From a phage, in the sequence record X58667.1: a stretch of 238 nucleotides of DNA; one strand, 5' to 3'. The position numbers and the translations under genes were made by a program. This document shows, in pieces, positions 1-238 of this stretch; position 1 is the first letter of the stretch; each line of letters begins with the position of its first letter. The notes beneath the pieces are model-generated. The model was given only the letters and a program-made list of their open reading frames with translations. It did no database searches and had not been told where the DNA came from.

Positions 1-56
1 GGATCCGTTGACCTGCAGGTCGACCCAGATCTGGGTCGACCGGTCGACCCAGATCC
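1..56. other. Synthetic multiple-cloning-site / linker region (BamHI 1-6, GTTGAC HincII-type 7-12, PstI 13-18, SalI 19-24, BglII 27-32, SalI 35-40, AgeI 39-44, SalI 43-48, AGATCC hybrid 51-56)
   Basis: Seen directly: eight or more 6-bp restriction recognition sequences tiled almost without gaps in 56 bp, far too dense for natural DNA. The first 24 bp (GGATCCGTTGACCTGCAGGTCGAC) resemble the symmetric BamHI-SalI-PstI-SalI polylinker of M13mp7/pUC7-type vectors with one base difference (GTTGAC rather than GTCGAC); this resemblance is recalled from memory, not searched. GC content drops sharply after about position 56. Confidence 0.8.
19..40. repeat. Perfect 22-bp palindrome GTCGACCCAGATCTGGGTCGAC (SalI-BglII-SalI linker); its left arm recurs as a 14-bp direct repeat GGTCGACCCAGATC at 18-31 and 42-55
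   Basis: Seen directly: the reverse complement of 19-40 is identical to itself, and positions 18-31 and 42-55 are identical. The pattern fits duplicated synthetic linker halves rather than a natural operator or mobile-element inverted repeat. Confidence 0.85.
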
Positions 57-95
57 ACTCGTTATTCTCGGACGAGTGTTCAGTAATGAACCTCT

Positions 96-101
96 GGAGA
101 G
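96..101 (+). promoter_or_regulatory. Shine-Dalgarno-like ribosome binding site (GGAGAG) for the ATG at 106
   Basis: Seen directly: GGAG at 96-99 (GGAGAG 96-101) lies 6 nt (4 nt from the extended motif) upstream of ATG 106-108, within the usual bacterial spacing range. Confidence 0.5.
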
Positions 102-105
102 AACC

Positions 106-238
106 ATGTATATGATCGTTATCTGGGTTGGACTTCTGCTTTTAAGCCCAGATAACTGGCCTGAATATGTTAATGAGAGAATCGGTATTCCTCATGTGTG
201 GCATGTTTTCGTCTTTGCTCTTGCATTTTCGCTAGCAA
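106..238 (+). CDS. Partial CDS (5' start in window, 3' end beyond window): hypothetical small hydrophobic/membrane protein, N-terminus MYMIVIWVGLLLLSPDNWPEYVNERIGIPHVWHVFVFALAFSLA...
   Basis: Seen directly: ATG at 106 with an upstream SD-like motif, and an open frame from 106 to the window end with no stop (44 full codons). The translation has a hydrophobic stretch at residues 1-13 (MYMIVIWVGLLLL), a polar/charged loop (SPDNWPEYVNERIG), then a second hydrophobic stretch (IPHVWHVFVFALAFSLA) still running at the window edge. Codon usage is AT-biased and includes AGA. No family assignment could be made from memory. The start is ambiguous: ATG 112 and GTG 76 are in the same frame, and the frame is open back to position 1. 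Confidence 0.55.
   Translation, partial: MYMIVIWVGLLLLSPDNWPEYVNERIGIPHVWHVFVFALAFSLA

Follow-up and report, generated by a model that had tools for sequence, protein, structure and literature searches.

The stretch of DNA analysed here, which is the 238-nucleotide window of sequence record X58667.1 at its full length, is very probably a laboratory recombinant-DNA junction in which a BamHI end of phage lambda DNA has been ligated to a BglII-cut synthetic linker. We put the probability of this reading at roughly 0.96. An earlier note, made from the letters of the window, had described it as an engineered chimera in which a synthetic polylinker abuts natural-looking DNA. The engineered character is borne out: positions 52-238 are lambda DNA at 100% identity, positions 1-51 agree with lambda 34449-34499 at 12 of 51 bases, which is chance level, a BglII/BamHI scar lies at the join, and the left-hand part is made up of a polylinker and tiled 8-mers.

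The right-hand part of the window (52..238, plus strand) corresponds to positions 34500-34686 of lambda, and all of its 187 bases (187/187) are identical to those of both NC_001416 and J02459. This region is the 5' part of sieB, which is annotated in NC_001416 as a plus-strand CDS (34482..35036). The gene is flanked by ral and N, and nutL and the oL operators follow at a greater distance to the right. In a megablast search with the whole window the segment 52-238 has been identified at 100% identity in 17 phage records, in 6 records of the plasmid collection and in 169 of the 5,426 complete E. coli genomes. Leftward of position 52 the match is not continued in any of these phage, plasmid or E. 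coli records.

The lambda segment is also present, at 100% identity, in records of about 48.5 kb that are filed as plasmids of Salmonella enterica, Stenotrophomonas maltophilia and Paenibacillus sonchi. As this length is that of the lambda genome, these records may represent contamination of public assemblies with lambda control DNA, a suggestion judged on the 187-nt match. A phage record named Campylobacter phage CJLB-4 has the segment as well (187-nt match). The laboratory strain E. coli C3026 carries the lambda sieB segment in three places and the laboratory strain C3029 in two, and the extra copies of these two genomes may be engineered lambda-derived insertions.

At the breakpoint lambda reads GAAATGGATCCACTCG and the window reads GACCCAGATCCACTCG. 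The lambda BamHI site GGATCC (34499-34504) is represented in the window by AGATCC (51-56), with A at position 51 as against G at lambda 34499, and the identity begins at position 52, which is lambda 34500. The match to lambda can not be extended leftward by even one base. Since the identity runs from the G of GATCC and takes in no further base, the break coincides with the cut position of BamHI (G^GATCC). The hexamer AGATCC is what the ligation of BglII-cut (A^GATCT) to BamHI-cut DNA is expected to give. The scar as a whole occupies 50..56 and comprises CAGATC, the BglII-cut half of the 8-mer CAGATCTG, joined to the lambda BamHI end. Such a hybrid hexamer can be cut neither by BamHI nor by BglII and is still open to BstYI and Sau3AI. 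Both marks of a compatible-end junction are found in the window, namely homology that stops at the cut position of an enzyme and the hybrid hexamer AGATCC.

Restriction sites had been described as lying back to back over 1-56, and the counts agree with this description. We have identified seven palindromic hexamers in 1-56, as against 1.05 on average in 20,000 shuffled sequences, of which a fraction of 0.0004 reached seven, and the named sites take up 50 of the 56 bases. One palindromic hexamer is present in the 182 bases of 57-238, and in lambda 34200-35700 a stretch of 56 nt has 0.43 of them on average and never more than 3. The sites, as read from the sequence, begin with BamHI GGATCC (1-6), which forms the first bases of the window, and continue with HincII GTTGAC (7-12), PstI CTGCAG (13-18) with an overlapping SbfI site (12-19), SalI (19-24), an intact BglII site (27-32) and two further SalI sites (35-40 and 43-48). 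An AgeI site (39-44) is made by the blunt join of two copies of the 8-mer GGTCGACC, and the row ends with the BglII/BamHI hybrid AGATCC (51-56), which is a BstYI site.

The composition of the bases changes along with the sites, the GC content falling from 0.65 for positions 1-51 to 0.43 for the lambda part, 52-238 (Fisher p = 0.007). The maximum-likelihood change point of the GC content lies at 61 and is imprecise. The fall in GC that was part of the original description is confirmed; its placement at 56/57 is not, as the lambda identity starts at 52 and the join therefore lies inside the common GATC overhang (52-55), 1-5 nt further left.

Dense tiling of palindromic sites, decomposition into polylinker and linker units and absence from natural genomes, three of the properties by which a polylinker is recognised, are found in the left-hand part of the window. 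Positions 1..24 (GGATCCGTTGACCTGCAGGTCGAC) are identical at 23 of 24 bases to the core of the symmetric M13mp7/pUC7-type polylinker (GGATCCGTCGACCTGCAGGTCGAC). The site order BamHI-SalI-PstI-SalI is shared with polylinkers of the M13mp7/pUC7/pUC4K type, which are arranged as EcoRI-BamHI-SalI-PstI-SalI-BamHI-EcoRI. The window differs from this type in having T and not C at position 9, and in the sequence following the second SalI site, which is GGATCC in the M13mp7-type polylinker and C followed by 8-mer linkers in the window; the EcoRI side of the polylinker would fall outside the window. Owing to the T at position 9 the first SalI site of the polylinker (GTCGAC) is lost and GTTGAC, a site for HincII only, is left at 7-12. 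This could be the result of a mutation, of a deliberate removal of SalI or of a sequencing error in a palindrome-rich stretch. The best match to 1-24 in PLSDB is the polylinker GGATCCGTCGACCTGCAGGTCGACGGATCCGGGGAATTC, located beside aph(3')-Ia in the plasmid record pTi_EHA101. The same polylinker is the sole notable match when 1-62 is compared by sensitive blastn with phages, plasmids and E. coli genomes; the search gave nothing in the E. coli genomes and chance-level fragments elsewhere.

Positions 18-55 can be divided without remainder into GGTCGACC, CAGATCTG, GGTCGACC, GGTCGACC and CAGATC. The first of these units (18..25), with the SalI site at 19-24, joins the mp7-type polylinker to the linker block. 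It is followed by CAGATCTG (26..33), which contains the intact BglII site, and by two tandem copies of GGTCGACC (34..49), each with a SalI site. The tiling contains perfect palindromes of 24 nt (18-41) and 28 nt (28-55) and a 14-nt direct repeat (18-31 and 42-55). The longer palindrome, GATCTG-GGTCGACC-GGTCGACC-CAGATC at 28..55, has the form of a linker-only BglII mini-fragment that was presumably caught between a BglII site and the lambda end, and a capture of this kind would fit linker-tailing and ligation work. We take GGTCGACC and CAGATCTG to be the classic commercial SalI and BglII synthetic linkers. Literature searches for the two 8-mers as commercial linkers gave nothing useful, and those for the linker block and for descriptions of the EMBL3 polylinker gave no match naming a vector. 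The comparison with Rfam picked out the palindromic linker only, at 14 bits as against a hairpin-family threshold of 45 bits, and such a score is meaningless.

On these observations the lambda DNA was cut at its natural BamHI site (G^GATCC, 34499/34500), and its GATC overhang was ligated to the compatible end of a BglII-cut synthetic linker to give AGATCC, which neither of the two enzymes can cut again. Leftward from the scar the DNA is synthetic only, with two copies of GGTCGACC, one intact CAGATCTG, another GGTCGACC and half of an mp7/pUC7-type polylinker, which reads leftward as SalI-PstI-(SalI mutated to GTTGAC)-BamHI. The lambda BamHI site has thereby been destroyed, and another BamHI site (1-6) now stands at a distance of about 50 bp, with SalI sites in the interval. 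As the window starts exactly at GGATCC, positions 1-6 are probably the cloning site of the construct, and the start of the record at position 1 probably corresponds to that site. Such a start fits a record or a read that was trimmed at the cloning site.

The lambda part of the window probably represents the beginning of a vector right arm, in a lambda vector of the BamHI replacement type. The start of sieB within it would have been carried along and would not be what the construct was made for. The right arm of lambda 1059 and of EMBL-type vectors presumably begins at the lambda BamHI site at 34499, the int-cIII region being deleted or replaced, and we take EMBL3 to have the order arm-SalI-BamHI-EcoRI, derived from mp7-type polylinker sequence. 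Compared with the right arms of the lambda 1059 and EMBL3-4 lineage and its derivatives, the window would have the same order of BamHI (1), SalI (19, 35, 43) and lambda 34500 (52). An EcoRI site would be expected beyond BamHI, outside the window, and the likeness to these arms is one of layout. With respect to the ral-sieB-N region of lambda itself, the window differs in having synthetic DNA to the left of 34500, on the ral side, and in the change of the BamHI G to A. The description of the window as a vector/insert chimera is upheld as regards the engineered join and needs correcting as regards the insert: lambda is itself a standard vector backbone, so that the window may consist of vector from end to end, with no insert.

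A different origin for the same junction would be a plasmid carrying a lambda insert, in which the BamHI fragment extending rightwards from 34500 was placed in the BglII site of a plasmid polylinker. We regard this as possible and as less likely than a vector arm; the purpose might have been, for example, the carriage of the N/pL/cI region or of sieB. The chemistry of the junction would be identical to that of the vector-arm picture, and the mp7-type polylinker is an element of plasmids and M13. Plasmids with lambda DNA from the BamHI site at 34499 do exist, as exemplified by pHB30, which contains lambda bases 34499-34696 with the BamHI site as one end, adjoining pBR322 from base 375 (PMC3640518). 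Against this origin, the junction and linker block are found in no plasmid of PLSDB, a collection that has few synthetic vectors, and the combination of BamHI, SalI sites and a lambda BamHI end is a layout typical of replacement-vector arms. The boundary in pHB30 lies at the same lambda BamHI site as that of the window. Base 375 of pBR322 is, as we assume, the BamHI site of that plasmid, so that the join in pHB30 would keep GGATCC and form no BglII hybrid, whereas in the window the site has been turned into AGATCC by way of a BglII linker. For the lambda part of these 238 bases, the right arm of a replacement vector is the more probable source and a plasmid insert the less probable one.

The portion of sieB (superinfection exclusion protein B) present in the window comprises its first 44 codons (MYMIVIWVGLLLLSPDNWPEYVNERIGIPHVWHVFVFALAFSLA), at 106..238 on the plus strand, and is cut off by the end of the window. 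A ribosome-binding sequence, GGAGAG, can be read on the same strand at 96..101, 4 nt upstream of the ATG at 106, and in one lambda record a ribosome_binding_site is annotated within the matched stretch. The Pfam family SieB (PF14163) has been assigned to frame 1 with a score of 28.8 bits (cut-off 26); residues 36-79 lie on positions 1-48 of the 147-position profile, and profile position 1 aligns with MYMIVIW, the ATG of which is at position 106. This ATG, 54 nt downstream of the junction, is the probable start of sieB. The annotated starts of the gene differ between records, being 34482 in NC_001416 (MSIEMDPLV...), 34497 in several other calls (MDPLV...) and 34554 in others (MYMIVIW...). SieB provides an exclusion function expressed from the prophage, and the SieB of P22 halts macromolecular synthesis midway in the lytic cycle of superinfecting P22-like phages (PMC10883804). 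In P22 the translation of sieB is under the control of an antisense RNA, sas (PMC12197685).

The earlier note had suggested that the encoded open reading frame was probably subcloned on purpose. A junction of this kind would have been designed for the expression or study of sieB, possibly as an in-frame fusion to residues encoded by the polylinker. Frame 1 is indeed open throughout (1-237), with the polylinker in frame with sieB (GSVDLQVDPDLGRPVDPDPLVILGRVFSNEPLERTMYMIV...), and both the ribosome-binding sequence and the ATG of sieB (96-108) are kept. The linker part, however, contains no ATG, GTG or TTG in frame 1 and hence no engineered start, and the window has neither a tag nor a tailored junction. 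The join is at a pre-existing lambda site, the natural BamHI site, upstream of the Pfam-supported start, and it deletes two in-frame upstream ATGs used in some of the annotations (34482 and the MDPLV... start). No promoter-like site is present in the linker or between the junction and sieB; when the window and lambda 34200-35100 were scanned for promoters and terminators, neither gave a consensus site. The tandem repetition of the linkers is redundant and points to unplanned products of ligation. A deliberate sieB expression construct is very unlikely in view of the natural site, the lack of a start and of a promoter, and the redundant linkers, and it has been rejected. The open frame that links the polylinker to sieB is probably a coincidence. 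There is likewise only a slight chance that the window derives from an undescribed lambda/polylinker vector variant in which the in-frame arrangement of polylinker and sieB and the GTTGAC were intentional, for instance to produce or study an N-terminally extended SieB. Were this true, the arrangement would add a detail to laboratory history but no new biology.

A perfect 10-nt inverted repeat has been identified within codons 5-17 of sieB, with GTTATCTGGG at 118-127 and CCCAGATAAC at 147-156 separated by a 19-nt spacer. The repeat is native lambda sequence and corresponds to lambda 34566-34604. On the plus strand it is predicted to form a 12-bp RNA hairpin (MFE -17.8 kcal/mol, z -3.4) and on the minus strand a structure with a main stem of 10 bp (MFE -14.1, z -3.5); for each strand, 0 of 200 shuffles were as good. 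The hairpin (118-156) is not followed by a T-run and has no match in Rfam. As sieB of P22 is regulated by the antisense RNA sas, a regulatory role for the lambda hairpin is conceivable by analogy.

A natural contig containing 1-238 contiguously had been named as an observation that would speak against an engineered construct, and none has been found. Neither the 30-mer over the junction (window 41-70) nor that of the linker block (window 26-55) has an exact match among 185,579 genomes of species, 241 million metagenome records and 2.9 million viral contigs, while the positive control, a native lambda 31-mer over the intact BamHI site, has matches in 35 viral contigs. No blastn match spans 1-51 in 50,697 phage records, in the plasmids or in the 5,426 E. 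coli genomes. A protein search with frame 1 gave 17 candidates, a set without full-length lambda SieB, and among these no gene call runs into the residues encoded by the linker; the best matches begin with MDPLVILG... or MYMIVIW.... An open reading frame of 35 amino acids across the junction is not on record.

Lambdoid phages are mosaic and several related phages carry 52-238 at 100% identity, as would suit a natural breakpoint in a lambdoid phage or prophage that differs from lambda to the left of sieB, but the probability of such an origin is negligible and it has been rejected: the break sits on a restriction cut position, with a hybrid of compatible ends at the join, the left side is made up of nothing but tiled palindromic sites and repeated 8-mers with 23 of 24 bases in common with an engineered polylinker, 1-51 matches no natural phage or prophage record, and the junction and linker block occur in none of the natural collections in which the native junction is found in 35 viral contigs.

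All the components of the window are known technology: a polylinker of the mp7 type, linkers of 8 nt, the scar of a compatible-end ligation and the wild-type sequence of lambda. Interpretations based on the genomic neighbourhood had been considered invalid for the left third of the window. This is correct for the left third, and the limitation to that third is not supported, as the lambda part is probably vector too and no inference on a natural neighbourhood can therefore be drawn from the whole window. The observation of a chimera is correct as a flag for contamination or artefact and is essentially without biological novelty. Its value is one of data hygiene: such records should be masked before any search for mosaic junctions or natural defence loci, since sieB of lambda, a real gene for superinfection exclusion, might otherwise be counted as a hit in an odd context.
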